NCBI GenBank assembly: GCA_965214705.1
Contig: OZ243972.1
Location: 1,920,001-1,984,000, forward strand
DNA from: Alphaproteobacteria bacterium
GTDB taxonomy: Bacteria; Pseudomonadota; Alphaproteobacteria; UBA828
Length of the DNA: 64,000 nucleotides
Direction: 5' to 3'
Shown: one piece after another, positions 25,982-63,319 of the stretch
Layout of the letters: every line of letters begins with the position of its first letter
Numbering within the stretch: the stretch's first letter is position 1
The notes under the pieces: generated by a model
Database searches by the model: none
Seen by the model: the letters and a program-made list of their open reading frames with translations, nothing else
Told to the model about the DNA's origin: nothing
Position numbers and translations under genes: made by a program

Positions 25982-25993
25982 CAGGTGGTCACC

Positions 25994-30637: not shown

Positions 30638-30663
30638 ATTATATAGCTGACTATGCGCCGGTC

Positions 30664-32107: not shown

Positions 32108-32127
32108 GGTTATAGGACTTCATACCC

Positions 32128-33120: not shown

Positions 33121-33228
33121 GTGCTGTGTCCTTCAAGCCATTGATCTTGAAGGGGACTCTAGCACAAGGCGGGTGCATAGTCAAGTATATAATTCCCCAT
33201 TGAAGCCTACTCCACATTATCTTGCCTC

Positions 33229-36186: not shown

Positions 36187-36187
36187 G

Positions 36188-38736: not shown

Positions 38737-38984
38737 CGTTCTGTCCTCCTCCTGGTTGAGACGAACCGCGCCGGCCCTGCCGGCGTGGGCGTAATGGGTG
38801 CGCGAAGGTCGCGGGCAACGCTGCCGCGGCGGACCGTCGCGATCGTTCGGGGTTTGCCGGCGGGCGCCGGCAGGAGGCCGAGCCGGGCCGGGAGGGGGCG
38901 AAGGGGCCTAGGCGGGAGAGGGAGCGGCGCTCCCGGCTCCAGGCCTTCCGTCCCGCCCCGCACCCCGCAACGGAGATCTCCGTC

Positions 38985-39398: not shown

Positions 39399-39409
39399 GC
39401 ACCGATTTG

Positions 39410-42328: not shown

Positions 42329-42330
42329 TT

Positions 42331-47515: not shown

Positions 47516-48201
47516 TGCCTGCCCCCGACACGAGTGTCCCTCCCGTCCACGACGGCGTCGTCGAGCGCGATCTCCGTGATGCGCAGATGCGCGCCCGTGC
47601 GCGTGACCAGCGACGGCGTGAAGCGGAGTCCGAGCCGCGCGGCGAGCCGTCCGCCCTGGTCGAAGTGGAAGGGCCGCCCATGGCGCCGCGCGAGATCGAG
47701 CGGCCGCCCCGCCAGCAGGACGATCTTCGAGGGCCGTCCGTGCGCCAGCGCCCAGGCGATCTCGGCGTCGCGCCTGCCGTCGACGAACAGGAGGTCGCGG
47801 CTGAGCGGCACGTACGCGAACGGGTCGATGCGTGTCTCGGCGGCGGCGATTAGCGTGCCGTCGACGGCGCGGATGTCCCGGGCCACCGTTATCGAGGGGT
47901 CGAAGGTCCACGAGCGCGCCTGTCCGGCCGGCGCGATGCCGGGCACCGGATTCGGCTCCTCCAGCATGCCGCTCGCCCGCTCGCGCGCCTCCGCCTCGAA
48001 GCGGGCGAGCTCGCCGGAGCGTTCCATCTCCGCCAGCCGCACCTCGATCTGCTTGAGAAGATCGGGCTCGGCGACAGGCCAGGTCGCGCCACGCACACCC
48101 AAGTCCTTCGCGGAGACCGACGCGGAAGGCCCCGCGGCAAGCATTGCCAGGAGGCAAAGGACCGCGAGGGGCCGAAAGGACAATGGCGGAAAGCGCGTCA
48201 T
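47512..48201 (-). CDS. traW: TraW
   Basis: DLGVRGATWPVAEPD..FDPS..FDQGGRL. Confidence 0.9.
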   Translation of the reverse strand: MTRFPPLSFRPLAVLCLLAMLAAGPSASVSAKDLGVRGATWPVAEPDLLKQIEVRLAEMERSGELARFEAEARERASGMLEEPNPVPGIAPAGQARSWTFDPSITVARDIRAVDGTLIAAAETRIDPFAYVPLSRDLLFVDGRRDAEIAWALAHGRPSKIVLLAGRPLDLARRHGRPFHFDQGGRLAARLGLRFTPSLVTRTGAHLRITEIALDDAVVDGRDTRVGGRQ

Positions 48202-48767
48202 CGCCGCGTCTCCGCCGGCCCGATATCGTCCGGCCCCACCAGCGGCCCCGCGAGGCCGAGCCAGGGGAGGTCGGGGAGCGCCAGCGCCCGCCCGAGAATG
48301 CGGTCGCGGGGGACCGGCCCGACCTCCGCATAGCGGCTGTCGTGGCTGTCGCGATGATCGGCGTGGACGTAATAGTGCCCCTCGGGAACGGCGCCCGGCC
48401 GGATCGCTTCAAGCGGCCGTCCGTCGAGGGCGTGGCTCTTCGCGCGCGCGACAGGCGCACCGTCGAGGCGCACCGTCCGGTCCGCGTCCACGGTCACGGC
48501 CGCGCCCGGCAGGCCGCGCACGGTCTTGAGCCACGGAGTCCGCGCGCCGAGCGCCGGCGGCGGCTCGAACAGCACCGCGTCGCCGACGGCGGGCTCGCCG
48601 ATGGGCAGCACGAGATAGCCCCAGGCATCGTCCGACCAGCTCGCATTGACGTGCACGCGCGAGGCCGCCGCCAGCCACAGCGAGGCGAGCACTGTCATGA
48701 GCGCGAGCCCGATCCAGGCGCGCTTCCCGCCGCGCCCGCGGGCGGCCAGGATCGCCCGACCCGTCAC
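48198..48767 (-). CDS. S26 conjugative transfer peptidase (TrhF-like)
   Basis: VNASWS, KTVRGLPG, DSHDSRY. Confidence 0.85.
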   Translation of the reverse strand: MTGRAILAARGRGGKRAWIGLALMTVLASLWLAAASRVHVNASWSDDAWGYLVLPIGEPAVGDAVLFEPPPALGARTPWLKTVRGLPGAAVTVDADRTVRLDGAPVARAKSHALDGRPLEAIRPGAVPEGHYYVHADHRDSHDSRYAEVGPVPRDRILGRALALPDLPWLGLAGPLVGPDDIGPAETRR

Positions 48768-49138
48768 GGCCGGTCCTCCCGGCCGGACGTGGCCTGTTTC
48801 ATCCTGTCCTCGATCATGGAGCGCACGACATCGGTCACGTCCGGCGCGCCGGCAGCGACTGCGCGCGAAGGCAGCAGCACCACGTCCCGGCGCCCGACGA
48901 TGTCGCCGAGCGTCCGCTCCAGCGCCGCCGCCCAGAGCCGGGTCGAGGTCTGAATCTCGTCGGCTGAAGCGCCCCTGTGCGCGGCCCTCTCGGCATGCTC
49001 CGCCGCGAGCTCGGCGAGGCGGACGCTCGCGATGCGCGGTCCTTCGTCCACGGACAGGCGCACCGCGCCGGCGGCGACCGCCGCAGCAACGCCGGCAGCG
49101 AGCAGCATGGCGGAGAGGACCACCCGGACCTCGCTCAC
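48764..49138 (-). CDS. trbI: TrbI-like protein
   Basis: N-terminal TM; VVLLPSRAVAAGAPDVT. Confidence 0.75.
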   Translation of the reverse strand: MSEVRVVLSAMLLAAGVAAAVAAGAVRLSVDEGPRIASVRLAELAAEHAERAAHRGASADEIQTSTRLWAAALERTLGDIVGRRDVVLLPSRAVAAGAPDVTDVVRSMIEDRMKQATSGREDRP

Positions 49139-49392
49139 CGCGCTTGCTCCGCGGCCCGCTGCCGGGCCGTCATCGAGACGTACGAACGCGTGTCTCGGTG
49201 CTTGAACCAGGCGGTGCCGTCCTCGTCGTGGAACATGTAGAGGTAGTGGCCCGCCCAGTCGCGCTTCGAGCGCTCGGCGGACAGCACGCCCGCCAGGATC
49301 GCCGCGCGGAACACCTCCTCGGCGTCCCGCACCACCCGGATGCCGGGGGCAATGCCGCCCCGGTTCTCACGCCGCCTGCCGCGCCGCGCCAT
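49135..49392 (-). CDS. Hypothetical protein
   Basis: GGAGG RBS; FRAAILAGVLS..YLYM..FKHRDTRSY; coupled to trbI. Confidence 0.55.
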   Translation of the reverse strand: MARRGRRRENRGGIAPGIRVVRDAEEVFRAAILAGVLSAERSKRDWAGHYLYMFHDEDGTAWFKHRDTRSYVSMTARQRAAEQAR

Positions 49393-50095
49393 GGTCCGAT
49401 TCCTCCGTTTTCCGTTCGCCGGCACGAGTGTCCGCCTGCATGCCTTCGTCATCGCCGGTCCCTCCCTTCATTTCTCCGGTTGACGTTGTTCCCGTCGCCG
49501 CGCCGGTCTGCCGTGGCGGCTCGGAGAGCGCCTCGAAGCGGGCGAGCCAGAGCCTCGCGGCCCGTCCTGGTCCCACTGCGCGGATGCGCCGCCTCAGCGG
49601 CGGGAACGCCGCGCCCGAACCGGCATCGGCGTCCGCGAGGTCGCGGCGCTCCGCCGCCGCCGTCATGCGGAAGACGAAGCGGAGCAGCTCCGCGTGGTCC
49701 TCGCCAAGCACGGGATCGAGCCCCGCCGCCTCGCGCACCGCGCGTTCGATGGCGTCGGCGAGCTTCGCCGCACGCTGGGACGATCCCTCTCCTCGCAGCC
49801 ACGCCGATGGCGCGTCCGCGATCAGCGCGCAAAGCGCGAGGTTCCGCCGCTCGTCGGCGCCGAGCCCGTCGAGCGCCTCGATCTCCTCGCTGGCGATCAC
49901 GGCGTGCGCCGCCAGCGAGTGGTACTGCCGGGTGCGTCCGCCGAAGCGGCAGGTGTTGGCCAGCACGTGCGCCAGCGCCTCGAAGTCGATATCGGCGGGG
50001 GTCGCGCCCTCCGGATCGCCAGGCCAGGCGAGGCGCCCGCCGGCAGCCCCGGCGGTGGCGAGGGTTCCCCGCTCGTCTTCCGCTCGTGCGTTCAT
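49367..50095 (-). CDS. HD-superfamily (YfbR-like) phosphohydrolase homologue with degenerate HD motif
   Basis: IDFEALAHVLANTCRFGG..YHSLAAH; LIADAPSAW in place of LLHDAAEAY. Confidence 0.7.
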   Translation of the reverse strand: MNARAEDERGTLATAGAAGGRLAWPGDPEGATPADIDFEALAHVLANTCRFGGRTRQYHSLAAHAVIASEEIEALDGLGADERRNLALCALIADAPSAWLRGEGSSQRAAKLADAIERAVREAAGLDPVLGEDHAELLRFVFRMTAAAERRDLADADAGSGAAFPPLRRRIRAVGPGRAARLWLARFEALSEPPRQTGAATGTTSTGEMKGGTGDDEGMQADTRAGERKTEESDHGAARQAA

Positions 50096-52794
50096 TCGCC
50101 GTCTCCTTTCTTGTCCGCATGTTCGATGTCGCCATCGGCGCCGGCGCTGTCGTCTCCGCCGGCTGTCTCCTGGATGCCGGTTTCGCCGCCGGTTCGGCCG
50201 GAGCCGTCCCCAGGCCTCGCGCCGTCCGCGACGGGAGCGTCCCCCGCGAGCCGGTCGATGGCCTCGACGGTGGAGAGCCCCTCGGCCTTGAGCCGCTCGA
50301 CGGCCGCGAATGCGGGTCCGCGCGAGGAGAACAGCGCCACCGACCAGAGATCGAGCACGAGGCGCGCCACGCGCCAGCCGTCGGGACCGTGCAGCAGCAG
50401 CTCCGCATGGCGGCCCTCGGCGGTGGTCAGGCTCTTCAAGGCCCGCTCCATGCCGGGATCGCAGTGGATGCGCTTTTCCTGCTTCAGCAGCTCGACGGAT
50501 TCGTCCTTCTGGGCGAGGAAGATCGTCCAGTCGGAGTTCTCCCAGGCCGCCTGCGCCGCCGGGTTGGCGTAATAGTCGTTGACCGACTGGGTGCCGGTGA
50601 TGAGCGAGCCGCGGTATTTTCTGGCCCTGCGCGCCGCGCCTTCGAGGAAGGCCCGGCTGTTCTCGCCGGAGAGCAGGTCCCAGGCCTCGTCGATGACGAT
50701 GGCCTTCGCCCGCGTGCGCTCCCCGTGATACATGCGCTGGGTGGCGAGGAAGACCACCAGCATCAGCACCACGGCCTGGACGTCGCCCCGGCCCTTGAGC
50801 TCGGCCAGCTCGAACACGGTGAGCGCGGCATCGAGCGCCGGCGTCTCCGCGCCCGCGAACAGCCGTCCCATGGCGCCGCCGGGGCACCACGGACCGAGGG
50901 AGGTCGCCATGTCGGCGGCGCGGCGGTCGCCGCGGGCGTCGAGATGCCGGCGTACGGTGCCGAGATCGGCGTCGTTCCCGGCTTCGTCCCAGGCGGCCGC
51001 AATGGCCTCGGCGATCAGCGCCGCCTCGATGTCGTCGATCGACCCTCGCCTGCGGCACATGCGTCCGATGACGCCCGCCAGCATGGCGAAGCACTCTTCC
51101 CTGTAATCGCCGTCACGGTGCGCCGTGGCGGCGTCGATCATGGCGAAGGGATTGAGGCAGGCGGGATCCTTGCCGAAGGCGATGAAGGCGCCGCCCAATG
51201 CTTCCGCCGTGTGCTGGAAGGACCGGCCGTCGTCGATCACCACGGCCTCGCCGCCCGCGCCGACGATGCCGGTGACCAGCTCCTGCATCAGCACCGACTT
51301 GCCCGAGCCGGATTTTCCCGTCACGGCGACGTTGTAGTTGCCCGCCTCGTTGGCAAACGGCGACCAGCCGGCCGGCTGGCCGCGGCGGCCGATCAGGAAC
51401 AGAGCCGGCGGGTTGTCGAGATTGACGGGCTGTCCCCGCCACTCGCCGTGCAGCGGAGCCAGGTTGACCGCCGAGGAGCTCAGCAGGGTCTTCACGCGGC
51501 CCATGCGCGCGAGATCGCCGTTGAGCCCGCCCGCCGGGACCATCGGCAGGCAGGAGAGCCAGGAGGGGAGCTGGACGTAGCGCTCGGCGCTCACCCGCCA
51601 GCCCTGGCCGTGATAGATCGCGCGCACCGCCTGCTCGGCCTCGTCCAGCGCATCGAGCGGCGCGTAGACCGCGGCGAAGTAGCAGGCCTTCACCAGCCGC
51701 TCGCCGTCCTTGAGGCGCTCGGTGACGAACTGCCAGTCCCGTGCCTTCTCGGGCAGCCCCGGCAGGTATCGCGCGATCCCGGTGCCGGCCTGCTGGGTGG
51801 CGCGCGCGGACTTGAGGAACGCCTTCTCCCCGTCGGCCGCCTCGCCGGTCATAACGGTGAGACAGGTCAGCACCGGACATCCGGGCTGCAGGAAGTCGCG
51901 GTGGAAGTCGCCGATCAGCGCGTTGCCGCGCCAGCCCGGCCACACCTCGGGAAAGGTAGCGGCCGTCAGCACCCGCACCGCAACGTCGCCGGCACGCGTG
52001 TCGCTGCCGCTCCCTCCGTGGAATACCAGGCCCGTGGGCGCGACAGTGAGCGCGCGGCCGGGCGCGGCGCATTGCAGGTGAATGGGATCCCTCGGAGACC
52101 AGCGGCGGCGCGGCCGGTGGAGCGGGGTGGCCGTGCCCGGTTCGGCATCGGGCGCGATCGCGGGCGCGATCAGCTCGGCAGCGAGCGACAGCAGCGCATC
52201 GGGACCGAGCCTCCGCGCCACGGCCCCGGCCGAGGCGAGCGTCCCTTCGAGCGCCCGCCGGAAGGCCGAGAGCGCGGTCTCGGGAGCCGGGCCGGGAGGA
52301 CCCGCCAGCGAGGCGCAGACGAAGGCCCGGTAGTCCGACAGCGTGAATGGCGGCCCGCCCGGATGCAGCGCCCGCCAGCCCGCGCCGCCGAGGAGACGAA
52401 GCCTGCGGCGCGCCATGCCGGCCTGGACGGGACCCGCGTCCCCGCGCGGCCCGGCCCAGGCATCGAGCGCCGCGCCGAAGCGCGGGCTCGCCCAGTGGAT
52501 CACCTGCACCGTGCAGCGCTCGGGCGCGGCGTCGGCCAGCGTGCCCGCGAGCGCGCCGAGCGTCTCGGCGTCGATCCCGGCGAAGGGCGGGATCTCGACA
52601 ACGAACCCGACCGAGCCCGCGTTGACATAGAGCTCGCCCCGCTCGTCGAAGGCGCGCCAGGGCAGCAGCTCGCAAAGCGCCGCGCCGGTCTCGGGCGGCG
52701 ACCAGGGCTCCAGCCCGGCCGGACCCTCGAACAGGTCGAGCAGGCGGCGCGCGATGCCGGAGCCGGCGCCCGGCGGCGTCACCGCAGCCTCCAT
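50092..52794 (-). CDS. traC: TraC (VirB4-like ATPase)
   Basis: ELLPWRAFD, NYNVAVTGKSGSGKS, IDEAWDLL, ARRARKY. Confidence 0.95.
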   Translation of the reverse strand: MEAAVTPPGAGSGIARRLLDLFEGPAGLEPWSPPETGAALCELLPWRAFDERGELYVNAGSVGFVVEIPPFAGIDAETLGALAGTLADAAPERCTVQVIHWASPRFGAALDAWAGPRGDAGPVQAGMARRRLRLLGGAGWRALHPGGPPFTLSDYRAFVCASLAGPPGPAPETALSAFRRALEGTLASAGAVARRLGPDALLSLAAELIAPAIAPDAEPGTATPLHRPRRRWSPRDPIHLQCAAPGRALTVAPTGLVFHGGSGSDTRAGDVAVRVLTAATFPEVWPGWRGNALIGDFHRDFLQPGCPVLTCLTVMTGEAADGEKAFLKSARATQQAGTGIARYLPGLPEKARDWQFVTERLKDGERLVKACYFAAVYAPLDALDEAEQAVRAIYHGQGWRVSAERYVQLPSWLSCLPMVPAGGLNGDLARMGRVKTLLSSSAVNLAPLHGEWRGQPVNLDNPPALFLIGRRGQPAGWSPFANEAGNYNVAVTGKSGSGKSVLMQELVTGIVGAGGEAVVIDDGRSFQHTAEALGGAFIAFGKDPACLNPFAMIDAATAHRDGDYREECFAMLAGVIGRMCRRRGSIDDIEAALIAEAIAAAWDEAGNDADLGTVRRHLDARGDRRAADMATSLGPWCPGGAMGRLFAGAETPALDAALTVFELAELKGRGDVQAVVLMLVVFLATQRMYHGERTRAKAIVIDEAWDLLSGENSRAFLEGAARRARKYRGSLITGTQSVNDYYANPAAQAAWENSDWTIFLAQKDESVELLKQEKRIHCDPGMERALKSLTTAEGRHAELLLHGPDGWRVARLVLDLWSVALFSSRGPAFAAVERLKAEGLSTVEAIDRLAGDAPVADGARPGDGSGRTGGETGIQETAGGDDSAGADGDIEHADKKGDGE

Positions 52795-53579
52795 TCGGCC
52801 GGCGCGATCACCGCCCGCACGTAACTCCCCTCGCGGTAGATGCCGTCGGCATCCACGAAGGGCGCGATCCAGATGCGCGCCACCACCTCGCCGGTACGGA
52901 ACGCATCCGATGCGGCCGGATCGGGCGCGTTATCGGCGCGGGCATCGCCGGCCGCCTCGCCCTCGGCCGTGGGCGGCGCATCGTCCGGGACCGGCGGCGC
53001 GATCGCGGCCGAACCGGCTCTCAAAGCACCGGACGCGGAATGGCCGGTAGCGGCGGAGGAGTCCCGGACGGCGCCCGCTACCGGCGCGGCGCGACTTACT
53101 CTCGGGCCGGCGGTCGCATCGGTCGCGACATCGTTATTTCGCCGGGAGAGGCCCGTTTCCGAATCCGCGTCACCGGCATCGCCGATGCCCGAGAACAGCG
53201 ACCCGAGCCAGGCGAACGGATCGCAATCCGATTCGCAGGCCGGTTCGTCGGCAGTCCCGGCCGACAGGCCCGCAACGATGCGACCGCTGCCCTGTCCGTG
53301 GCGCGGGATTGCACCTGCGAGCCTCGTCCCATCTCGCGTCTCCGGCACGAGTGTCTCCGGCACGAGTGTCTCCGGCGCGCGCGTCTCCGACGCGCGCGTC
53401 TCCGACGCGAGTGTCTGCGGCACCGCCGGGTCGGCGGCGAAGACGGACGCGCACACCTTTCCCTGCGCCAGCGGGCATTGCCAGTCGTCGCCCACATGGG
53501 TCGCCGAGCAGCCCGCCAGCGCCAGCGCGGCAATCAAGGCCGCCCCCGCTGCAGGCGGCCGGTTCCTGCGTTCAGTCAT
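52779..53579 (-). CDS. traV: TraV lipoprotein
   Basis: Lipobox LAGC, WQCP..C, RIWIAPFVDADG. Confidence 0.85.
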   Translation of the reverse strand: MTERRNRPPAAGAALIAALALAGCSATHVGDDWQCPLAQGKVCASVFAADPAVPQTLASETRASETRAPETLVPETLVPETRDGTRLAGAIPRHGQGSGRIVAGLSAGTADEPACESDCDPFAWLGSLFSGIGDAGDADSETGLSRRNNDVATDATAGPRVSRAAPVAGAVRDSSAATGHSASGALRAGSAAIAPPVPDDAPPTAEGEAAGDARADNAPDPAASDAFRTGEVVARIWIAPFVDADGIYREGSYVRAVIAPAEWRLR

Positions 53580-54828
53580 TCCTCTTCCCCTTTTCGGTCC
53601 TTCCGTCGAGCCACGCGCCCTCGATGAACACCACCGTCACCCGGGTCCCGGCCTGGAGCTGGATCACCGGCTGGTACTGTTCGGCGCGCCGGATCAGGTA
53701 GTCGGCGACCTTGCGGCCCGCCGACGAAGCCCCGGAGCCGAGCCCGGCCCGGCCGATATCGTCGAGACCGGTATTGGCCATCGAAGCTCCCGTGCCGGTG
53801 GCGACGGCCTGCGGCGCGAACGCGCCCGAGACACCCTCGCCGAGCCCGGAGACGAGGCCGGCCAGGAACGCCTTCTCGACCAGCGCGCCCTCGCGGCTCA
53901 CCACGGGGCCGCGCACACCGGTCTTGCCGGCGCCGGCGACGAACCCCGCAACCTGTGTTTCCAGCACCGTGCCGGGGTGTTCCCCCGTGCCGGGCTCGTC
54001 TCCGACGCAGGTGAGCGTCCTGAGCCTCGCGTAGACCTTCTCCGACGAGAGGTCGCCATGGGCGGCGCCGGTCACGGTGCAGCCGTCGATATCGACGGCG
54101 AGCGCCCTGCCATCGACCGCCGCGGTCCATGCGGGACCGACGATCCTGAGCAGCACCGGGCGCGGGTCGCCCTGCGACGAGACCCCCGCCGAGGCGTCGA
54201 CGCCCGCGAGCACGATCGCCTCGGCGTGGCTCCCGGCCGGAAGCCAGGCGCCGATATCCCTGGCGGGGGGCGCGTCGAACGGCTCCTCCGAACCGTCGAG
54301 CCGGAAGGTCTCGATCAGAGACCCGGTCTCCGGCACGGCCCCGGACGCGGCATCGCCGGCCGTCGGGGCTGTCCGCCGCCCCGCGCCCCGCTGGAACAGC
54401 TCGCCCTTCGGCGCGCCCTCGGCCGGGGCGGCTTCTGAGCCCGCCCCCGCGCGCTCCATCTCGGCGATCTTCGCCGCGAGGCCGTCGATGACACGCTTCG
54501 CGTCCTGGGCATTGGCGGTAAGCTGGGTCCGGAGGCGCTCATTCTCCTGGTTCACGCGATTCGCCCTGGTCTCCATGTCGCGCAGCCGCGCGTCCATGTC
54601 GCCGAGTCGGGCTTCAGAGCGCCGCGTCCAGCTCTCCTCGGCCGTCCCCGGCGTCGCGAGCTCGGCATCGATGCGCGCCTCCGGCCGGGGCGCATTGCCG
54701 CCGCCCGCCGCGAGCCAGAAGGCGAACACCATCAGCACCGCCGCCGCGATCACCGAGAACAGCACCAGCTGCCGGTTGCGGGCGCGGCGCGACTCGCCGT
54801 CGCGCGCCTTCGCGGTGCGCGCGCTCAC
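53572..54828 (-). CDS. traB: TraB (VirB10-like)
   Basis: TM plus coiled coil; LPAGS..GVDA, GDLSSE, GVRGPVVSR, YQPVIQLQAG. Confidence 0.92.
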   Translation of the reverse strand: MSARTAKARDGESRRARNRQLVLFSVIAAAVLMVFAFWLAAGGGNAPRPEARIDAELATPGTAEESWTRRSEARLGDMDARLRDMETRANRVNQENERLRTQLTANAQDAKRVIDGLAAKIAEMERAGAGSEAAPAEGAPKGELFQRGAGRRTAPTAGDAASGAVPETGSLIETFRLDGSEEPFDAPPARDIGAWLPAGSHAEAIVLAGVDASAGVSSQGDPRPVLLRIVGPAWTAAVDGRALAVDIDGCTVTGAAHGDLSSEKVYARLRTLTCVGDEPGTGEHPGTVLETQVAGFVAGAGKTGVRGPVVSREGALVEKAFLAGLVSGLGEGVSGAFAPQAVATGTGASMANTGLDDIGRAGLGSGASSAGRKVADYLIRRAEQYQPVIQLQAGTRVTVVFIEGAWLDGRTEKGKRND

Positions 54829-55811
54829 CGTGACTCTCCCGCGTGCGGCGGATCGGCAACCGGACCGTCTCCGGCGCGAGTGTCTCCGGCACGGGCGTCC
54901 TCGTACACCGCCACCGCGAGCCTGCCGCCCGAGGGGCCGGTGCCGGGCGCCGCCAGCCAGAGAGCGGCGAGGCGGCCGATGCCCGCCAGCCCGCCGATGG
55001 TCTCCGGCACGCGTGTCTCCGGCACGAGTGTCTCCGGCACGAGTGTCCCGGCGAGGCCCGCGGCGCCCTCCGCGCCCCCTGAGGCCGAAGGGCCGGCCTC
55101 GAACACGAACGCCGAGAAGCGCGATCCACGCCAGGTCTCGATGACCTTCAATCCTGAGACACCCGTGCCGGGGACACTTGTGCCGACGACCGCGCGCCCG
55201 GCATGGACCGCATAACCGGCAAGCGGCTCGCCCCGCGCCGCCGCGCGGATCAGGCGCACCAGCGCGCCGATGCGATCGTCGCCGGCCGCCGCCGTTCGAT
55301 CGGACGTGGATGCGGTCGCAGGTGCCGGCGAAACGACCGCCGGGTTGCGGATCAGGATCTGCGTCGCGCCCACGGACACGGGCGTCAGAGCGAGCCGGTA
55401 GGTGAAGCCCCGCTCGGTGCCGATGAACAGCACCTCGGGCCCCGCCGCCGCCGCGCCGTCGCCCCCGAGGGGGCGCAGGTAGAGATCGCCGCTCGCCGGG
55501 TCGTGCTCGACGCGCAGGCCGCCGGGCGCCCGGATCACCTTGGCGACGCGGTCGCCCGGCAGCGCGATGCGAACAACCCCGGACATGGAGATGTCCGCCG
55601 CAAGCTCGGCATGATCCGCCGCCTCCAGGACACTTGTGCCGGAGACACTCGTGCCGGAGACACTCGTGCCGGCGGCATACGCGCACGAGGCATCCATGGC
55701 GGCGGCCACGGAGCCGTACGCCATACATATAAGGAGTGCCGCCGCCATCGCCGCGACGCGGCCGAAGCGCGCCATGGAGTGCGGTCCGGCCGTCACCGAT
55801 CCTGTATTCAT
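54825..55811 (-). CDS. traK: TraK
   Basis: Signal peptide; VVRIALPGDRV..GDLYLRP..LFIGTERGFTY; between traE and traB. Confidence 0.82.
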   Translation of the reverse strand: MNTGSVTAGPHSMARFGRVAAMAAALLICMAYGSVAAAMDASCAYAAGTSVSGTSVSGTSVLEAADHAELAADISMSGVVRIALPGDRVAKVIRAPGGLRVEHDPASGDLYLRPLGGDGAAAAGPEVLFIGTERGFTYRLALTPVSVGATQILIRNPAVVSPAPATASTSDRTAAAGDDRIGALVRLIRAAARGEPLAGYAVHAGRAVVGTSVPGTGVSGLKVIETWRGSRFSAFVFEAGPSASGGAEGAAGLAGTLVPETLVPETRVPETIGGLAGIGRLAALWLAAPGTGPSGGRLAVAVYEDARAGDTRAGDGPVADPPHAGESR

Positions 55812-55813
55812 CC

Positions 55814-56365
55814 TCAGTCCTCCATCTGCTCGAAGCGCAGCAGAGCGAGCCGGCCCGCGTCGATGCGGAAGGCGAGGCGGTAGCGCCGCTTCTGCCGCGA
55901 AGCCTCCTCGCGCCCGATCCAGGTCACCAGCTCGCCCGCGATCTCGGCGCTGAGTTCGCGCCCGTCGCTCTCGATGCTCCTCGGGTAGAACGCGGTCGAG
56001 AGGTCGCGCCGGGCCATCCGCTCGGCTTCCGACGCCACCCAGGCGCCGATAGCGCCCCGGGCCTCGGCATGGGCGAGGCGCGCGACCGCCTCGCGCACAT
56101 GGGCCGCGTTTTCGGGCGTGAGCGTGAGCAGCGTCACCGCTGCGGTGCGCGCCGCATCCTCCAGGTAGCGCCGCCCCGCCCAGCTCTCCCCCACCTCCCA
56201 GGCGGGACCCGAGACGGCGGGAACCAGCACGGTCACCCGTTCGCGGCTGGTCAGCCCGTGCGCCAGCACCAGGTTGGAGAGAACCGCGAGCGCCAGCAGC
56301 CCGGCGAGAACCGCCCGCGTGTCCCGCGCCCGGCGGCGCTCCGCGTCCATCGCCTCGCGCCTCAT
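55814..56365 (-). CDS. traE: TraE
   Basis: N-terminal TM, VLVP, YLE..LTLTPEN; between traL and traK. Confidence 0.82.
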   Translation of the reverse strand: MRREAMDAERRRARDTRAVLAGLLALAVLSNLVLAHGLTSRERVTVLVPAVSGPAWEVGESWAGRRYLEDAARTAAVTLLTLTPENAAHVREAVARLAHAEARGAIGAWVASEAERMARRDLSTAFYPRSIESDGRELSAEIAGELVTWIGREEASRQKRRYRLAFRIDAGRLALLRFEQMED

Positions 56366-56655
56366 CCGAAGTACCGCCTGACATGGCTTGGCGGGGTGCC
56401 ACGGAGCCGCAGCACGAACTCGGGCAGGAACCAGTAGAGCGCGTAGAGCGCGATGTTGGCCCCGCCGCCGCGCTTGACGCGGCGCAGCAGCAGCCAGCCG
56501 GCGATGCCGGCCACCAGTCCCGCGACGAACTGGTTCGCCGCGAGCCCGAGCACCGCCGGTCCCAGCAGTGCCGCCGCCTCGTCGAAGGTCCAGAACAGCC
56601 AGCGCTCCGGGTCGTCGAGACGGCGCGGGATCGCATGGCGCGCGGTGTCGTTCAC
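56362..56655 (-). CDS. traL: TraL
   Basis: IPRRLDDPERWLFWTFDE..LYWFLP. Confidence 0.9.
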   Translation of the reverse strand: MNDTARHAIPRRLDDPERWLFWTFDEAAALLGPAVLGLAANQFVAGLVAGIAGWLLLRRVKRGGGANIALYALYWFLPEFVLRLRGTPPSHVRRYFG

Positions 56656-56664
56656 TGTGGCCTC

Positions 56665-56988
56665 TCAGACGATCGCCGTGCCGACCAGGCCGGTCACGAT
56701 GCCGGTGCCCGCGCCCGCCGCCACGCCGACGCCGACCGCGCCGAGAAGCTGCATCGCGTTGAAGCGCAGAACCGAGCCCACCAGGGCCGCGCCCACCGCG
56801 AGCGCCGCCGCGAGCTGACCGCCGGTGCCGGACACCATGCCCGTCACCGTGTCCAGCGGATCCGTGAAGGTGGTGTCCGTCGTCGCCAGCGCCGCATCGA
56901 TGCCGAGCAGCGCCAGCGCCAGCGCGACGATCGCGCCCACGGCGATGCGGAGTGCGCGCTTCCTGCGGTCGTTCGAGATTGCAGTCAT
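56665..56988 (-). CDS. traA: Conjugative pilin
   Basis: Signal peptide plus two hydrophobic helices, directly upstream of traL. Confidence 0.75.
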   Translation of the reverse strand: MTAISNDRRKRALRIAVGAIVALALALLGIDAALATTDTTFTDPLDTVTGMVSGTGGQLAAALAVGAALVGSVLRFNAMQLLGAVGVGVAAGAGTGIVTGLVGTAIV

Positions 56989-57710
56989 CACCTGTCCTCC
57001 TTCCCGGTGTCGTCCCTGTCCGGCGGCGAGGTCGCCGCTCTCTCCTCGCGCTCCTTCTCGTCGGCCTCGGTGGTCGAGCGCGCCTCGCGCGCGGCCGCCC
57101 ACTCCGCCACCTTCGAGCGCAGATAGCGCGCCCGGTTGCCCATACGGCTGAACGGCGGTCCCTTGCCGCTGCCCCGGTAAGCCTGAAGCGTGCGGGGCGA
57201 CAGTTTCAGGAACTCCGCCGCCTCCTCGGTGCTCATGTAGCCGTCCTCGGTCATCTCCATCTCCTCATTGCCTTCCTTCCCCACCGGAACCGCCGGCGCC
57301 CCGTCCTCGACCGCCGCCCTGATCGCCTCGCGCTGGGCCGGGTTCGTATGCTCGGCCATGACGGCGTCCGCCTTGTCCATGGTGGCGAGCCGGGGCAGGC
57401 CGCCATCGAGCAGCCAGGTCGCAAAGGACCGGTTCCTGTTGACGTCGCGGCTGAACTCCGAGCGCTTTATGCCGGTGACCGCCAGGAACGCCCTGACCTC
57501 GGCCACGAAGCGGTCCCCGACCGGTTCGCGGCCCATCCCGACCAGCAGCTTGTCCACCGTATCCAGGCGCGGATTGCGCCCCTTCTTCTTCACCCGAAAG
57601 ACGAAGGTGGGATCGCGCATCGTCTCCCGGCCGAAGCGGCTGGGGGACATGTCGTGACGCTCCATATGGGCGTCGATGGCGCCGAGGAAGTGGGTGCGGT
57701 ATCGGGTCAT
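56988..57710 (-). CDS. Fusion of two Cro-like repeats and a C-terminal excisionase-type (HTH_17) domain
   Basis: Repeats SPSRFGRETMRDPTFVFRVK..PRLDT and KRSEFSRDVNRNRSFATWL..PRLAT; C-terminal YMSTEEAAEFLKLSPRTLQAYRGSGKGPPF. Confidence 0.75.
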   Translation of the reverse strand: MTRYRTHFLGAIDAHMERHDMSPSRFGRETMRDPTFVFRVKKKGRNPRLDTVDKLLVGMGREPVGDRFVAEVRAFLAVTGIKRSEFSRDVNRNRSFATWLLDGGLPRLATMDKADAVMAEHTNPAQREAIRAAVEDGAPAVPVGKEGNEEMEMTEDGYMSTEEAAEFLKLSPRTLQAYRGSGKGPPFSRMGNRARYLRSKVAEWAAAREARSTTEADEKEREERAATSPPDRDDTGKEDR

Positions 57711-57716
57711 GGGCCG

Positions 57717-57731
57717 GAACGTAGGTGGAAC
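57717..57731. promoter_or_regulatory. Alphaproteobacterial LexA (SOS) box GAAC-N7-GAAC
   Basis: GAACgtaggtgGAAC, 6 bp upstream of the ATG that opens the cro-xis/tra operon. Confidence 0.6.
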
Positions 57732-57739
57732 ATTCCGGC

Positions 57740-57769
57740 TTGACAATATATTTCAGTCTTCAATACACT
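57740..57769 (+). promoter_or_regulatory. Putative sigma70 promoter of the repressor gene
   Basis: TTGACA-18 bp-TACACT. Confidence 0.45.
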
Positions 57770-57801
57770 ACTGTTCTACGCAGCAGATACGAGCCACGAC
57801 C

Positions 57802-58488
57802 ATGCAAAGCGACCCGCTACGACAAAAAATCAGGGATCTGCTATGGCAGCGCGGCCTCACCATGAAGGAGGCCTCCGCCGCCATCGGCCGCAGCCCGAGC
57901 TACCTGAACCAGTTCATCGCCCGCGGCACGCCCAAGGCGCTCGGCTATGCCGACGCCCAGAGCCTCGCGAAGCTGCTCGGCTGCGAGGCGTCCGAGCTGC
58001 GCCATCCCGAGCCGCCCAGGCGCAGGCCGCAGAAGCGCCGCCGGCGCACCGCGCCCCCTGCCGGCGCGCCGCTCGTCGCCATCCCCGAGGTGGCGGTCGA
58101 GGCCGCCGCCGGGCCGGGCGCGCTCAACGAGGAGTTCGTCGACGAGAAGGCGCGCTGGTACCTGCCCGAGGGCATGATCCGCCACGAGGGCGACGCCGAC
58201 CCCGGCACCCTGCGCGTGCTCCGCGCCCGCGGCGACTCCATGGAGCCGCTGGTCTCCGACGGCGACCGGCTGCTGGTCGACCTCGCCCGGCGCACCCCCG
58301 GCACCGGAGAGATGGCGGTGCTCTGGGACGGCTCGGGGCTGGTGGTCAAGCGGGTCGAGGTGATGCCCCATGCCGAGCCGCCGAGGCTCCGCCTCCACTC
58401 CGCCAACCCCGACTACGAGCCCTACAGCTGCCTCGCCGAGGAAGCCCACATCGTCGGCAAGGTCGTCTGGACCGTGAGGAAATGCTGA
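57802..58488 (+). CDS. CI/LexA-like repressor with S24 autopeptidase domain
   Basis: N-terminal HTH; AAAG cleavage site; GDSMEP; VVKR; IVGKVVW. Confidence 0.9.
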   Translation: MQSDPLRQKIRDLLWQRGLTMKEASAAIGRSPSYLNQFIARGTPKALGYADAQSLAKLLGCEASELRHPEPPRRRPQKRRRRTAPPAGAPLVAIPEVAVEAAAGPGALNEEFVDEKARWYLPEGMIRHEGDADPGTLRVLRARGDSMEPLVSDGDRLLVDLARRTPGTGEMAVLWDGSGLVVKRVEVMPHAEPPRLRLHSANPDYEPYSCLAEEAHIVGKVVWTVRKC

Positions 58489-58594
58489 CGGGTGCGGCGC
58501 ACGGCGCCGGCGGCGGGTTCGGCCGCGACCCGGCGGGCGCGCCCGCGGCTGAGCCGGGAAAATGCACGACGGAGCGCGGTCCGGCGCGCGACAA

Positions 58595-58725
58595 TCTTCG
58601 GCATCGGCCCCGGCAGCACCGTATCTCGCTCGCCGCCGCCTCCCTCGCCATCGGCAGGAACAAGGCTTGGCTCCAGCAGTATCTCGCGCGCGGCATCCCC
58701 CGCGTCCTCTCCCGGAGGGAATGGC
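58595..58725 (+). pseudogene. Truncated paralogue of the repressor HTH
   Basis: ISLAAASLAIGRNKAWLQQYLARGIPRVL resembles LTMKEASAAIGRSPSYLNQFIARGTPKAL; similarity then ends. Confidence 0.55.
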
Positions 58726-59018
58726 CATTCACACCGGTGCGGCGTTCCTCTCGGCCGACCTTCGAAGGTCCCTGCCAAACGAGTATCGTTCCGAAGCCGC
58801 GGACCCGCACGATGGCGTCGTCGCCGCAATTGGCGCGCACCGTATTTGGTGCCCCGTCATCCTCTCCTCGTTTGGTGATCGTGCCGCTCGACATGACGCA
58901 ACGTGCGCACCGATCCGCAGGAAAAGCTGGCCTCGGTGGCGACGGGCGGCCGAAAGTCGCAGTCTTGGCAAAGCGATCACGCCGATTCTCGCATGCCTCC
59001 AGAAGGCCGCGTTCGATG

Positions 59019-60680
59019 TCAAGAACGCACAAGAGATTGGTGACGTCTCTCCGAGTTGCCTCCGGCCGGTAGAATCATCTGATTCAGGTCTAGGGATTCC
59101 GCCAGAACCTGAATACCCGTCGGTGCTTTGCCGGTTTCAAAGACCTTTTCCCAGAAGTCCAGATTCTGCTTTGGCCCGAACACCGTCGTACTCAAGTTCC
59201 TGTCGCACCAGCAGGGAAGATTCGCCAGGCTCACGAGGAAATTCCGCATGTGATCCCAGAGCGCATCGGGTAGCGGTCGATGCAGCAACCGGTCCTTGTC
59301 ATACATTTGAGCCGTAAAGGCGAAGTAATGTTCAATGACAAGCCGAAGCCAGCGCATCACATTTGCCAAGACTTCCTCCCGCGCCACACGCCATGCTCGC
59401 AAATGATCGTCCTGGATCGCGTCGCCCGCCTGTATCCGGGTTTCGATTCTGCGGCCCCCGGTTTCCGGGTCCCATTTTCCAATGAAGAAAACTTCGGCGA
59501 AGAGACTCATGATGCGGACGAGTTGTTCACGCTCGAGCTGACGCGGATTAGTGCCCTGCTCAAACTCCTGATCGATCGGCGTGCCAAGCGCCTTCTTGTA
59601 TAGGAACTCTTTGAAGAAGGACCGCTCGATGGCGTTGTAGGAGAGCGGTCGATCCGCACCCTTTCCGGCCCACTCGACAAATTCTAACAGGCTATTTGCG
59701 GACGCATGCATAACCGCGTCGCGCTGTGCATCAACGATGTATCGCTCCATCTCGCGGCGCTCACCACGGAAAAATCGCACAAGATCTTGCTCTGAGAACG
59801 AGTAGTCATCGTCAGAGAGACCTCGCAGATTTCGATATTGGTTGAGGCGTTCAGCGTAGAGGGTGCTTCCCAAATGCCGCATCACGGCCGTGTCGAACGC
59901 GACTTGGCGCAGTTTGCCGCCAGCGTTGGTGTTGGCCTGGAGCAGAACGTTCGTGTCAGGATCGACGAAAATCCGTACGGGCAACTCGCGCACGCCCAAG
60001 AGAATTTGTGCTGCTGCCTTGTGCTGCCCATCGAACACCCTGATCTCGCCCGCCCCATCGCCCGACGCTTTCCACCAAGCGAGTGCTATGTGGAGCTGAG
60101 GGCGGGAATCCTTGAATTCTTCGATCAGACCGCGAATGTTCGAGCCGATGCTTCGCGGGTTGATGCGATCGTCGTGGTGCAAGTATTCGAGAGGAAGCGA
60201 TGTGAAGAAGGATCGCATGCCACTCAGCTTGTCGTGAAGGAGCGGAACACAGCGGATTTCGTTCCGGTCAACATCTGGAAGGCTGAATTCAGCATTCTCA
60301 TCCTGGCATCGGATTCGCAACCGTGCCTTGGCTCCTCCGTGACGTTCCAGGATGTCGCCGAGATTCGCGCCGCGCTTCCCGGCTTGACGCGCCTGTTCCT
60401 GGAGCCGCTCAAACTCAGCTAGGCGACGAGCCACTTCTAGGTTCGAGGCTCCTTTTTTCCGATTGCATGAAGAATGGGTCAGCGCGAAGTTGTTCTCTGC
60501 ATCCAAACCGTCCTTCACCAGCGGATCGATATGGTCGATGTCGAGTTGTCCCTTGTGCAGTATCAAATCGATCGCCTCGTTGCATATGAAGCACAGCATG
60601 GTCTGTCGGTTATGCAGCCGCTGCTCGAGCTGTTGACGTTGCTCATCGGTCAGCGATGACAAGTATTGAGAGCGTGGCAT
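59019..60680 (-). CDS. HNH endonuclease fused to a DGQH(R/K) ParB/DndB-like domain
   Basis: CFIC..DIDHIDP..NFALTHSSCNRKKG; VFDGQHKAAA; lower GC than backbone. Confidence 0.75.
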   Translation of the reverse strand: MPRSQYLSSLTDEQRQQLEQRLHNRQTMLCFICNEAIDLILHKGQLDIDHIDPLVKDGLDAENNFALTHSSCNRKKGASNLEVARRLAEFERLQEQARQAGKRGANLGDILERHGGAKARLRIRCQDENAEFSLPDVDRNEIRCVPLLHDKLSGMRSFFTSLPLEYLHHDDRINPRSIGSNIRGLIEEFKDSRPQLHIALAWWKASGDGAGEIRVFDGQHKAAAQILLGVRELPVRIFVDPDTNVLLQANTNAGGKLRQVAFDTAVMRHLGSTLYAERLNQYRNLRGLSDDDYSFSEQDLVRFFRGERREMERYIVDAQRDAVMHASANSLLEFVEWAGKGADRPLSYNAIERSFFKEFLYKKALGTPIDQEFEQGTNPRQLEREQLVRIMSLFAEVFFIGKWDPETGGRRIETRIQAGDAIQDDHLRAWRVAREEVLANVMRWLRLVIEHYFAFTAQMYDKDRLLHRPLPDALWDHMRNFLVSLANLPCWCDRNLSTTVFGPKQNLDFWEKVFETGKAPTGIQVLAESLDLNQMILPAGGNSERRHQSLVRS

Positions 60681-60764
60681 CCTCGATGTCCTCTTGGGAG
60701 GTTTCGAAACTCGGGTTGAAGTGGCTGCGGACGATGGGCCTGCCATATCTGCCCAACTGCGGAC

Positions 60765-61937
60765 CTATAATACATCCGCGGCGATGCCGTCCGCGATCCG
60801 GGCCGCCGCCTCGTGCACCGACTCGCGCGCGAGATGCGCATAGCGCGCCGTCGTCTCGACCTGACTGTGGCCGAGCAGCTTGCCGATCATCGGCAGGGAC
60901 TCCCCCAGCGCGAGAGCCCGAGAAGCGTAGCTGTGACGAAGGTCATGAAGCCGCACGCCGCCGAGCCCGGCGCGCGCCCGGAGCGTCTGCCAGGCGCCGT
61001 CGATATCGCGCATGTGCGTGCCCGGCTTGTGTCCCGGAATGACCCAGGGATTGCCGGGCTTGCGGGGCAGCGCCGCCAGCAGCCGCGCCGCCGACGGCGG
61101 GAGCGGCACCGCGCGCGGGCCAGTCTTCGCATCCGCCAACGCCAGCTCGCCCGCGTCGAGGTCCACGTCCCGCCAGCGCAGGCTGAGGATCTCGTTCTTG
61201 CGGCACCCGGTCAGCATCAGCAGCCGGATCGCCGTCACCGCGCCCGCCGACGCGCCGCCCCGCGCCTCCGCCTCGTCCAGCACCCCGCCCAGCTTCTCGA
61301 ACTCCGCGTCGGTCAGGAACCGCTCGCGGCGCTTCGACGGATACCTCGCCACCGACCCGCACGGGTTGACCCCGTCCGCCACCATGCCCCAGCCCTCGGC
61401 CAGACGGTACATGTGCGACAATGTGGCCACCGTCATGTTCGCCATCGCGGGTCGGTCGCTGAGACCGTGATGCAGCTCCAACACGTCGCGGGGCTCGACC
61501 GCCGCCAGCGACAGACCGCCGAGCCTGGGCACGATGTGCCGTTGTACAATGCTGCGTGTCGTCCTCGCGGTCTTCGGCTTGCAGCGCACCGCCACATGCT
61601 CCTCGAGATAGCGCGCCGCGAGATCGGCCACCGTCGGCCCCTGCGACAGCTTCGCCGCCAGCGGCTCGGGCACCGGGTCCTCGCCCGCCTTGACCCGCGC
61701 GATGATGAGCGCCGCGCGCCGCTTCGCCTCCTCGGCGTTGAGCACCCCGTGACGCCCCACCGTGACGCGCCTCGGCCCCTTGGGCCCCCGCGCCTGGACG
61801 ACATAGACCCTGCCGCCGCCGGGATAGGCCCGTACCCCGAAGCCCTTCAGCTCGCGGTCCCAGAACACCGTGTCCCACTCGACCTCCAGCGCCGCGACCA
61901 TGCGGTTGGAGATCGTCCGCCTACGCGTCCCCTTCAT
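60765..61937 (-). CDS. ICE tyrosine integrase 2 (arm-binding domain + catalytic domain)
   Basis: WDRELKGFGVR; GCRKNE, AKTG, HDLRH, LGH, RYAH; ATGA overlap with integrase 1. Confidence 0.92.
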   Translation of the reverse strand: MKGTRRRTISNRMVAALEVEWDTVFWDRELKGFGVRAYPGGGRVYVVQARGPKGPRRVTVGRHGVLNAEEAKRRAALIIARVKAGEDPVPEPLAAKLSQGPTVADLAARYLEEHVAVRCKPKTARTTRSIVQRHIVPRLGGLSLAAVEPRDVLELHHGLSDRPAMANMTVATLSHMYRLAEGWGMVADGVNPCGSVARYPSKRRERFLTDAEFEKLGGVLDEAEARGGASAGAVTAIRLLMLTGCRKNEILSLRWRDVDLDAGELALADAKTGPRAVPLPPSAARLLAALPRKPGNPWVIPGHKPGTHMRDIDGAWQTLRARAGLGGVRLHDLRHSYASRALALGESLPMIGKLLGHSQVETTARYAHLARESVHEAAARIADGIAADVL

Positions 61938-63115
61938 GCCGCGCTCCGCTCCGGCGCCACATGGACGCCTATGCTGTCGCCCACCCGGCCCGCCGCCGCC
62001 CTCTCCGCGTCGCGCACCAGATGCGCATAGCGCGCCGTCGTCGCCACCCGGGAATGGCCCAGCAGCCGCCCGATCATGCTCAGGCTCTCCCCCAGCGCCA
62101 GCGCCCGGCTCGCGTAGCTGTGACGGGCGTCGTGAAGGCGCACGTCCTTGAGACCGGCTCGCTCCGCGACGCACTTCCAATAGTAGTCGAGGGTGGCTAG
62201 GTGGGAGTCCGGCTTGCGGCCGGGCACGACCCACGGACTGCCGTCCGTTCGGTCGATGCCGTCGAGCACCTTCAGCAGCGGCGGGGTCAGCGGCACCATG
62301 CGAGGCCCCGACTTCGCGTCCCTCAACCGCAGCTCGTTCGCCACCCGGTCGATGTCGTCCCACTTGAGCGTCAGGATCTCGCTCTTGCGGCAGCCGCTCA
62401 GGATCAGGAGCCGGATCGCCGCCACCGCCTGCGGCCACGGCGCCGATTTCGACGCCGCCTCGCGAAGCGTCACGCCCAGCCGGCGGTATTCCTCCGGCGT
62501 CAGGAAACGCTCGCGCGTGTGCTCGCGGTAGTAGTACAGCAACCGGCACGGGTTGGACCCGCGCGGCACCAGCTCCCAGCTCTCCGCCAGCTTGTACATC
62601 TTCGACAGGACCGCCGCGGCGGTGTTGGCCATGTAGGGGGTGTCGCGCAGCCGGTGGTGCAGCTCGGCCGCGTCTTCCCGCCCCACCTCCCCGAGCGCCT
62701 TGCCGCCCAGCGCCGGCAGGATGTGCAGGTCCAGCGCCGTCCGGTAGAGTCCCGCCGTCTTCGGCTTGCAGTGCATCGCCACATGCTTCTCCATGTAGCG
62801 CTCCGCCAGCCCGGCCACCGTGAGTGCCGGCGCCGGAGGCGCCGGGAAGGGATCCTCGCCCCGCTTGATCCGGTCGATCGCCGCCGCCGCCCGCGTTCTC
62901 GCCTCCTCGACGGTGATATCGCCATGCTTGCCAACCCTGGCGCGCTTCAGCCCGCCCGGCCCCCTGGATTGCACCACGTAGACCTTGCGTCCGGTGGCGT
63001 GCACGCGTACGCCGAAACCGGCAAGATCGCGGTCCCAGAAGGTTGCGTCGCCGCGATCGACGCGGAGCGCATCGACGGTGCGCTTGGCGATCTTGAGGGT
63101 ACTTCGCTTGGGCAT
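61934..63115 (-). CDS. ICE tyrosine integrase 1 (arm-binding domain + catalytic domain)
   Basis: WDRDLAGFGVR; GCRKSE, AKSG, HDARH, LGH, RYAH. Confidence 0.92.
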   Translation of the reverse strand: MPKRSTLKIAKRTVDALRVDRGDATFWDRDLAGFGVRVHATGRKVYVVQSRGPGGLKRARVGKHGDITVEEARTRAAAAIDRIKRGEDPFPAPPAPALTVAGLAERYMEKHVAMHCKPKTAGLYRTALDLHILPALGGKALGEVGREDAAELHHRLRDTPYMANTAAAVLSKMYKLAESWELVPRGSNPCRLLYYYREHTRERFLTPEEYRRLGVTLREAASKSAPWPQAVAAIRLLILSGCRKSEILTLKWDDIDRVANELRLRDAKSGPRMVPLTPPLLKVLDGIDRTDGSPWVVPGRKPDSHLATLDYYWKCVAERAGLKDVRLHDARHSYASRALALGESLSMIGRLLGHSRVATTARYAHLVRDAERAAAGRVGDSIGVHVAPERSAA

Positions 63116-63129
63116 TGGCTTCATCCCGT

Positions 63130-63180
63130 GATCAAACCGCACATGTGCGGCATCGAACCGAGGCGTATTCAAGCGTATTC
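63130..63180 (+). promoter_or_regulatory. Putative integrase arm-type binding sites, right end
   Basis: GATCAAACCG, ATCGAACCG and GCGTATTC x2; palindrome CCGCACATGTGCGG; matches 3120-3169. Confidence 0.5.
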
Positions 63181-63298
63181 TCCGCGCAGGTGCAAGAGGG
63201 TCGTGTCGCTAAAGAATCAAGAATAAGGTAGTTTATATAATGCTTTATGTCTCGACAGCGTAGCAGACCGTATGACCAGCGTAGCTGTCGAAAAGTGC

Positions 63299-63319
63299 CC
63301 CTGTCTTTCTGTCCGTCAG
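63299..63319 (-). other. Right attachment junction (core GACAG 63313-63309)
   Basis: Integrase homology ends at LYLTDRKTG; shares the core and codon-degenerate flanks with 3038-3058. Confidence 0.85.

Follow-up and report, generated by a model that had tools for sequence, protein, structure and literature searches.

Mobile genetic elements that depend on more than one tyrosine recombinase are already known. According to the available parts of the published accounts, the movement of Tn554, of the SEs (with IntA, Tfp, IntB and Srap), of the GInts and of the RITs depends on two to three tyrosine recombinases, which are encoded in one operon at one end of the element and for which translational coupling has been suggested (PMC10214605, PMC8138268). 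Here, we describe a tandem pair of integrase genes in a stretch of 64,000 nucleotides (nt) from the 7.92-Mb genome of an alphaproteobacterium (assembly GCA_965214705.1, contig OZ243972.1, positions 1,920,001 to 1,984,000 of the forward strand), the whole of which is referred to as the window. The pair lies at one end of an element of about 60.2 kb, the invader, that is inserted into the first of two integrase genes of another element, the recipient. This tandem of equal-sized arm-type integrases is a variant among the multi-recombinase elements. It is a conserved unit across about 90 elements in two families, and there is, in our judgement, an even chance that the two proteins act jointly as a two-subunit recombinase, an XerC/D-like A2B2 heteromer that would insert and excise the element.

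The integrase pair and the closest described systems

The preliminary description of the window had reported two overlapping integrases of about 390 amino acids (aa) in the invader, and this was confirmed. Two proteins of 396 aa and 390 aa are encoded on the minus strand, and their genes share a stop/start ATGA (61934..61937), in which the ATG at 61937-61935 overlaps the TGA at 61936-61934. The first gene, IntA_inv (61934..63124), was identified by Pfam, by its catalytic set and by its place in the clade of first genes (support 100). It is annotated from the ATG at 63124, but all 29 aligned homologues (29 of 29) share the methionine found at its residue 4, so that translation may in fact begin with the ATG at 63115. 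The limit of 63180 given previously for this gene matches an upstream TTG at 63172. The second gene, IntB_inv (60765..61937, N-terminus MKG), was identified by Pfam and by its catalytic residues R238, K271, H331, R334, H357 and Y366, which occupy the same alignment columns in the other integrases. IntA_inv and IntB_inv are 54% identical in the alignment, and the ATGA overlap recurs in the element copy at C3:225447.

The recipient was found to mirror this layout, as had been claimed, with a split first gene followed by an intact second gene. The latter, IntB_rec (1521..2693, minus strand; 390 aa; assigned by Pfam), also begins with MKG, overlaps the preceding gene by ATGA at 2693-2690 and is 88% identical to the second gene of an intact pair at C1:614757-617150. 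The C-terminal part of the split gene, recognized from its open reading frame (ORF), Pfam and the alignment, covers 2690..3052 (minus strand; start at about 3052) and carries HDTRHS, GH and KYAH. Its N-terminal part runs from 63300 to 64000 and past the window end (minus strand), the ORF reaching C1:1984171, and reads ...LTGCRKSEILTLQW...LYLTDRKTG up to the junction. The invader belongs to family I of the paired elements and the recipient to family II.

All four integrases keep R-K-HxxR-H-Y in the alignment. An arm-binding domain, likewise ascribed to all of them before, was found above the Pfam cut-off of 27 bits in the three intact genes (Arm-DNA-bind_3 with 44.2 bits in IntA_inv, 30.9 bits in IntB_inv and 30.2 bits in IntB_rec), while the N-terminal piece of the split gene, which is cut by the window end, reached 26.0 bits. 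The three intact genes also have the SAM-like domain (32.6 bits in IntB_inv) and the Phage_integrase domain (67.1 bits in IntA_inv and 73.6 bits in IntB_inv). With 67-80 bits for Phage_integrase (PF00589; cut-off 27), the proteins belong to the tyrosine recombinase superfamily, and the domain order, Arm-DNA-bind_3 followed by the SAM-like core-binding and the catalytic domain, is that of heterobivalent integrases of the P4/SXT type. The pair resembles the P4/SXT-type integrases also in its position at the element end beside attL and may do so in the candidate arm-type repeats of the P' arm. Known members of this type each act alone, mostly at a tRNA or another single site, whereas the pair is obligatorily linked and present in many copies, and one of its lineages targets an integrase coding sequence. 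In the full-text papers searched, no description of a tandem or paired P4-type integrase family was found.

The ends of the invader were located by similarity breakpoints. At attL, the crossover core GACAGAAAGACAGG (63300..63313, minus strand) corresponds to codons D-R-K-T-G of the split recipient integrase; here, the similarity to other copies of the element begins, and that to the intact homologous target (C1:615570-615670) stops. At attR, the target sequence resumes with the core GACAGCAAAACCGG (3039..3052, minus strand), and this far end of the invader is 99% identical over 574 nt to a copy ending at C1:3077220. Assembled contig pieces from four runs of two studies span the attL junction (63065-63346), although contigs cannot reveal excision circles or empty sites. 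The P' arm (63116..63299, minus strand), which separates the crossover core from the first integrase, contains TACGC at 63283, 63262, 63177 and 63167 and TACGG at 63272, with a spacing of 10-11 nt. The four TACGC copies in this 184-nt arm have a single orientation; the window background is 1.2 per kb with both strands counted. Similar repeats were noticed by inspection upstream of the first genes in other lineages. These repeats are candidate arm-type sites.

According to Pfam, the body of the invader (3053..63299) encodes a TrwC relaxase (33229-36186), a coupling protein (TrwB_AAD_bind, 36188-39151) and TraG_N, TraH, TraF, TraN, TrbC, TraU, TraW, TrbI, TraC, TraV and TraK. Since a relaxase, a coupling protein and a full F-type transfer set are present, the invader is classed, from its gene content, as a conjugative element, one end of which carries the integrase pair. 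More precisely, the relaxase, the coupling protein and the F-type type IV secretion system between the att sites, with an integrase at the end, correspond to an integrative conjugative element (ICE) of the MPF-F type.

Comparison with the multi-recombinase elements is based on the portions of the published descriptions at hand. SEs and Tn554 combine one ordinary with one large recombinase, whereas here equal-sized close paralogues both carry Arm-DNA-bind_3. The Tn554 set of TnpA, a large TnpB and a small TnpC was not found: the proteins have 396 and 390 aa, and there is no conserved third gene within 3.5 kb. Likewise, the SE operon intA-tfp-intB with srap was absent, as the ATGA overlap leaves no intervening gene and no conserved partner was found. 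The extra partners described for SEs, Tn554 and GInts (Tfp, Srap, TnpC, GinC, GinD) thus contrast with this locus, where none lies between the genes or is conserved within 3.5 kb. RITs have three tandem recombinases between inverted repeats, whereas the pair has two genes, is located in a 60-kb ICE and is followed downstream by an ORF for an HNH-domain protein. MTnPi1-3 of Prevotella intermedia, as far as the accessible text goes, are similar to the elements described here in that they carry a 'Tyr duo' of tandem integrases, occur in many copies and use short degenerate targets (PMC4755523, PMC5704250). The tandem partners of MTnPi lack significant mutual homology, in contrast to the 54% identity within the invader pair and the mean of 37.5% in family II, and their hosts are Bacteroidetes, whereas the hosts of the pair are Proteobacteria-type metagenome-assembled genomes. 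As judged by the published descriptions, the pair has the defining features of none of Tn554, SE, GInt, RIT and MTnPi and is set apart from them.

Conservation and co-divergence of the two genes

Pairs were surveyed in the genome of the window, in genomes of the same genus, in other genera of the class and in species-representative genomes. The genome of the window contains 195 ORFs resembling these integrases, including many fragments. Near full length was observed for 99 of the 195, with 38 adjacent same-strand pairs, 37 of them tight. The remaining apparent pair (C1:379832-382314) was rejected because it is artefactual and reflects an interrupted gene. Several pairs have in turn been disrupted by other elements, e.g., at C1:613347-617150 and C1:379832-382314. 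In family I, the invader lineage has the ATGA overlap and the other pairs have gaps of 12-39 nt; in family II, a 3-nt gap was present in 23 of 27 pairs, with the ribosome-binding site within the first gene.

Outside this genome, the spread of the pair is patchy. Matches, many of them adjacent, occurred in all 12 same-genus genomes searched, as compared to 8 of 150 other genera of the class at E 1e-90, one of which has several adjacent pairs. The scan of species-representative genomes yielded 78 loci, nearly all in metagenome bins, with an intact pair in 51; the remaining loci mostly have a frameshifted, interrupted or truncated partner or lie at a contig edge, and a few are true singles. Broken partners were found mainly in decayed or interrupted elements. 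The first-clade gene lies upstream in 60 of 62 intact family I pairs (the exceptions being L074 and L081), and the order is equally constant in family II. With 37 tight pairs in this genome and intact pairs at 51 of 78 loci elsewhere, the pairing is conserved among homologues, a condition on which the preliminary description had made its proposal depend.

Downstream of the pair, no conserved third gene was detected within 3.5 kb (blastp at 1e-8, ORFs of at least 55 aa), the largest cluster comprising 10 of 88 elements; this search for Xis-, TnpC- or Srap-like genes could miss small or fast-evolving ones. The pair is therefore the only constant module of a very successful class of elements, with 37 copies of the module in one 7.9-Mb genome. 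Directly downstream of IntB_inv, a 575-aa protein with an N-terminal HNH domain is encoded (59019-60746, minus strand), which is not conserved beside the pair in other elements. A DGQHK motif within this protein may be related to DGQHR/DndB-like domains. Upstream of the pair, some family I lineages have a conserved ORF ending in ...GRGRYD(R/T)H(T/M)KRAQP.KDIWL.PLR.DWKRTLNR about 40-50 nt before the first integrase (C1:1821550-1821800, C2:475230-475480, C2:540760-541000, and upstream of the first integrase at L070 and L079). In these lineages, the pair either lies inward of the element end or shares its operon with a third gene. A consensus scan of 60400-63400 for promoters and terminators gave no site and is uninformative for a GC-rich organism.

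In the tree of the integrases of this genome, four clades were obtained. The first and second genes of family I are sister clades (support 99), and the family II first genes and second genes form clades with support of 100 and 95-100, respectively. A larger tree with 163 rows included the integrases of this genome and of other loci. Its clade of first genes comprises 67 rows (support 100), of which 60 adjoin an intact second gene and 7 a remnant; none of the 67 first-clade genes lacked a second-gene copy or remnant alongside. At the base of the second-gene side of this tree, five single integrases form a clade of their own (L083, L086-L089), and three singles with no first gene in 4 kb (L028, L041, L046) lie among the second genes. 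Four more singles, all from this genome, belong to neither clade. Given the single integrases at the base of the second-gene side and outside both clades, the pair most likely goes back to the duplication of one integrase gene. At two loci (L074:2769-5200 and L081:2769-5200), the tree places both members of the pair with the second genes, which may reflect an independent duplication or the earliest-branching pair.

The distances among first genes were closely mirrored by those among second genes. The matrices correlated with r of 0.925 for 62 family I pairs and 0.962 for 26 family II pairs, and 0 of 2000 Mantel permutations reached the observed r in either family. First and second genes thus form separate clades that co-occur, as predicted in the preliminary description, and that co-diverge. 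Identity within pairs equalled that between pairs (54% versus 53% in family I and 37.5% versus 37.5% in family II), and, therefore, there has been no gene conversion and the duplication is old. Whether it was shared by both families was addressed by the approximately unbiased (AU) test, in which a single clade of the first genes of both families had a p of 0.222; on this basis, one ancient duplication for both families is neither shown nor rejected. Among the first genes, 87 of 89 carry the complete set RKHRHY, as do 83 of 89 among the second genes, and most of the exceptions lack the C-terminal catalytic positions in the alignment. The median ratio of nonsynonymous to synonymous substitutions (dN/dS) was 0.26 for first and 0.20 for second genes in family I, and 0.27 for both in family II. 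Both genes are under purifying selection.

The pair of the invader also recurs, with proteins that are 90-94% identical, in metagenome bins that were assigned to different classes or phyla, namely L013 (Gemmatimonadetes), L015 (Ectothiorhodospiraceae), L016 (Rhodospirillales), L014 and L037 (Alphaproteobacteria) and L040 (Thalassobaculaceae). Either these copies were recently transferred between distant hosts, or short contigs were mis-binned.

Possible modes of action of the pair

At dif and at the plasmid sites cer and psi, XerC and XerD each bind one half of an asymmetric core and exchange one strand pair. The pair described here is similar in that it consists of two paralogous tyrosine recombinases with full catalytic sets, and a heteromer is proposed by analogy, as it was in the preliminary description. 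Xer proteins have no arm-binding domain and are encoded by chromosomal housekeeping genes, which are not adjacent as a rule. The equivalog models for XerC and XerD (TIGR02224 and TIGR02225) gave 41-55 bits against cut-offs of 335 and 330; therefore, the term 'XerC/D-like' can only mean that the pair would work like them.

In the proposed mechanism, the pair of arm-type (P4/SXT-like) tyrosine integrases would form an A2B2 complex on the synapse of attP and attB. First, both proteins would be made in about equal amounts from one transcript. Second, the two proteins would share out the cores of attP and attB, one sitting on the left half-sites and the other on the right, and each would exchange one strand pair, as XerC and XerD do at dif. 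Third, the TACGC repeats would serve as binding sites for the arm domains. The conserved int-proximal 5-mer of the core, i.e., ACAGG in the family of the invader and ACACC in that of the recipient, would be read by one partner, and the variable side of the core would be loosely specified, so that many sites could be used and dozens of copies could accumulate per genome. Several other lineages of family I end with ...ACAGG in unrelated contexts. Family II elements, including the recipient, end at target ACACC or ACACG followed by 5 nt and CGCACCT.CGGTGCTAA. The family II pairs 1, 25 and 8 have shuffled partners, but as a test of half-site recognition they were discarded, as the common junction ACACC...CGCACCT.CGGTGCTAA is the same in all family II elements and nothing covaries.

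A location of differences between the partners at a subunit interface would fit this mechanism. At 65% conservation, 10 alignment positions separate the first from the second genes of family I, and 4 of the 10 (373, 374, 376 and 382) lie in the tail after the catalytic tyrosine. Tyrosine recombinases such as Cre, lambda Int and XerC/D donate this tail to the neighbouring subunit, and, by analogy, its share of the discriminating positions counts in favour of a heteromer. Also counted for a joint enzyme is a separate ORF of the invader (56988..57746, minus strand), whose C-terminal HTH_17 domain (44.6 bits, residues 170-220) has the excisionase/AlpA-type fold and which is a candidate directionality factor; its true start may be an internal methionine. 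For other multi-recombinase elements, the available part of the literature states that knockouts of SE intA and of intB each abolish attL x attR recombination and that Tn554 movement needs TnpA, TnpB and TnpC (PMC10214605).

Several points weigh against a two-subunit recombinase. Contact between the two proteins is a prediction, and their co-divergence and co-occurrence, which follow from physical linkage alone, are no evidence of it. The 10 discriminating positions of family I are moderately conserved, a single one remaining at 85% conservation, and XerC and XerD are more clearly specialized than the first and second genes of this family. All candidate arm repeats follow one consensus, TACGC, and two arm specificities are not visible. 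The single-gene relatives (the five basal integrases, the three singles within the second-gene side and the four of this genome) exist, and, therefore, the fold needs no partner. The two loci with both genes on the second-gene side, L074 and L081, belong here as well. Finally, the core was called asymmetric from visual inspection only, and weak symmetry of the core is also known from integrases that work singly, such as lambda Int.

Among the alternatives, a division of labour is considered unlikely, though it fares best. Both proteins would be active but separate, e.g., in integration versus excision or on different pairs of sites; in one variant, att recombination would be distinguished from the resolution of tandem or nested copies. 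A model is provided by FimB and FimE of E. coli, adjacent paralogous tyrosine recombinases that act on one site with different outcomes, although these are small, lack arm domains and invert a switch rather than integrate an element. The full catalytic sets and the selection acting on both genes would be explained, the single-gene relatives indicate that one protein can suffice for the basic reaction, and a second reaction such as resolution could pay for elements that are multi-copy and nested. However, the invader ends show one kind of core and one arm consensus, the HTH_17 ORF can supply directionality by itself, and the tight translational coupling suggests equal dosage instead of independent regulation.

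It is improbable that one partner is the working integrase and the other is mainly architectural or regulatory, serving arm sites, target choice or the blocking of re-excision. Such a role could suit the first gene, since its clade descends from a single gene that resembled the second genes, and since it never occurs without the second gene while a few second genes occur without the first. A purely architectural protein would be expected to lose its catalytic residues, yet RKHRHY is retained in 87 of 89 first genes with dN/dS of about 0.26. Tfp and GinC, as stated in the accessible part of one report, lack RHRY (PMC10214605).

Redundancy, in which either enzyme could do the whole job and the pair would persist through linkage and dosage, was judged quite improbable. 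The 54% identity, the shared domains and the small number of discriminating positions would allow it, but both genes have been kept intact across about 35-40% divergence and in two families without homogenization, and broken partners are mainly those of decayed or interrupted elements. That the integrases of two unrelated elements were juxtaposed by insertion has almost no probability: elements do insert into each other's integrase genes, and the artefact at C1:379832-382314 arose in this way, but for the invader pair such an accident is refuted by the tree, the spacing and the co-divergence, i.e., by ATGA or 3-nt spacing, mirrored trees and a constant gene order (60 of 62 in family I).

If the two proteins indeed form one enzyme, the pair would be a natural arm-type integrase with a separate subunit for each of the two strand exchanges. 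It would then be possible to test and engineer independently in what order the strands are exchanged, how half-sites are recognized and how targets are chosen, which would be relevant to programmable integrases.

Insertion into integrase genes and cargo of the invader

In the preliminary description, the pairing of the integrases was also thought to allow Russian-doll nesting of related elements. Nesting proved to be real and recurrent, with 11 cases, but the pair is not needed to explain it. The reconstructed attP core of the invader reads ...CTT ACC GAC AGC AAG ACA GG..., corresponding to L-T-D-S-K-T-G, and its 14 bp mimic the D-S-K-T-G codons of the conserved catalytic-lysine hairpin of integrases. 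Homing into integrase genes is accounted for by this mimicry and not by the pairing. In the 11 insertions, which belong to the invader lineage and a neighbouring lineage, an integrase N-fragment ending ...D(S/R/T)KTG lies directly upstream and in frame. Four of them are in this genome: the window copy (junctions 63300-63313 and 3039-3052), C1:3009749 (C1:3009598-3009640), C3:225447 (C3:225370-225400) and C3:2284652 (C3:2284400-2284460). In the other genomes, the junctions are located just upstream of the first integrase (L013, L014, L025, L031, L032, L037 and L040). The relatives L017, L020 and L036 are located at a DNA motif of similar sequence that is not preceded by an integrase reading frame. 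A split first gene at C2:439798-443311 was rejected as a homing event, its insert having no similarity to the invader ends.

For one lineage, the landing pad is thus a conserved coding sequence of other integrases. Landing there represents competition between mobile elements and would immobilize the invaded element. Taken together, it is possible, though we put this forward tentatively, that the pair marks an undescribed large class of elements whose arm-type integrase is an obligate heteromer, which would be the first case in the lambda/P4 world of the two strand exchanges being split as in XerC/D, and with one lineage that homes into the D-S-K-T-G codons of its rivals and disables them while nesting.

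In several lineages, the second (or single) integrase is followed on its own strand, after 7 bp to about 2 kb, by a C-terminal integrase fragment. These fragments are located at L018:7175-7345, L032:5435-5626, L035:5189-5668, L042:5160-5327, L061:5172-5372, L062:5160-5354, L087:5801-6070 and L088:6053-6292. Most start at about residues 298-334, near the HDLRH box, while that of L035 starts from 227. The fragments may point to a second site of homing within integrase genes or to a short element consisting of the pair only.

Besides its F-type transfer genes, the invader carries defence cargo, as identified by Pfam. Type I-U-like Cas genes (GSU0054, GSU0053, Cas3-like, a Cas4-Cas1 fusion and Cas2) occupy 16893-26287 and are preceded by a Type ISP restriction-modification enzyme of 1227 aa (13001-16684). 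A toxin-antitoxin pair of RelE and helix-turn-helix proteins lies at 3176-3878 and an S24 repressor at 57676-58488. At 4467-5792 (plus strand), a 441-aa ORF with no Pfam match contains about nine arginine-rich repeats of the form C-x2-C ... C-x2-C. Transposases of the IS66 and IS1595 types complete the cargo.

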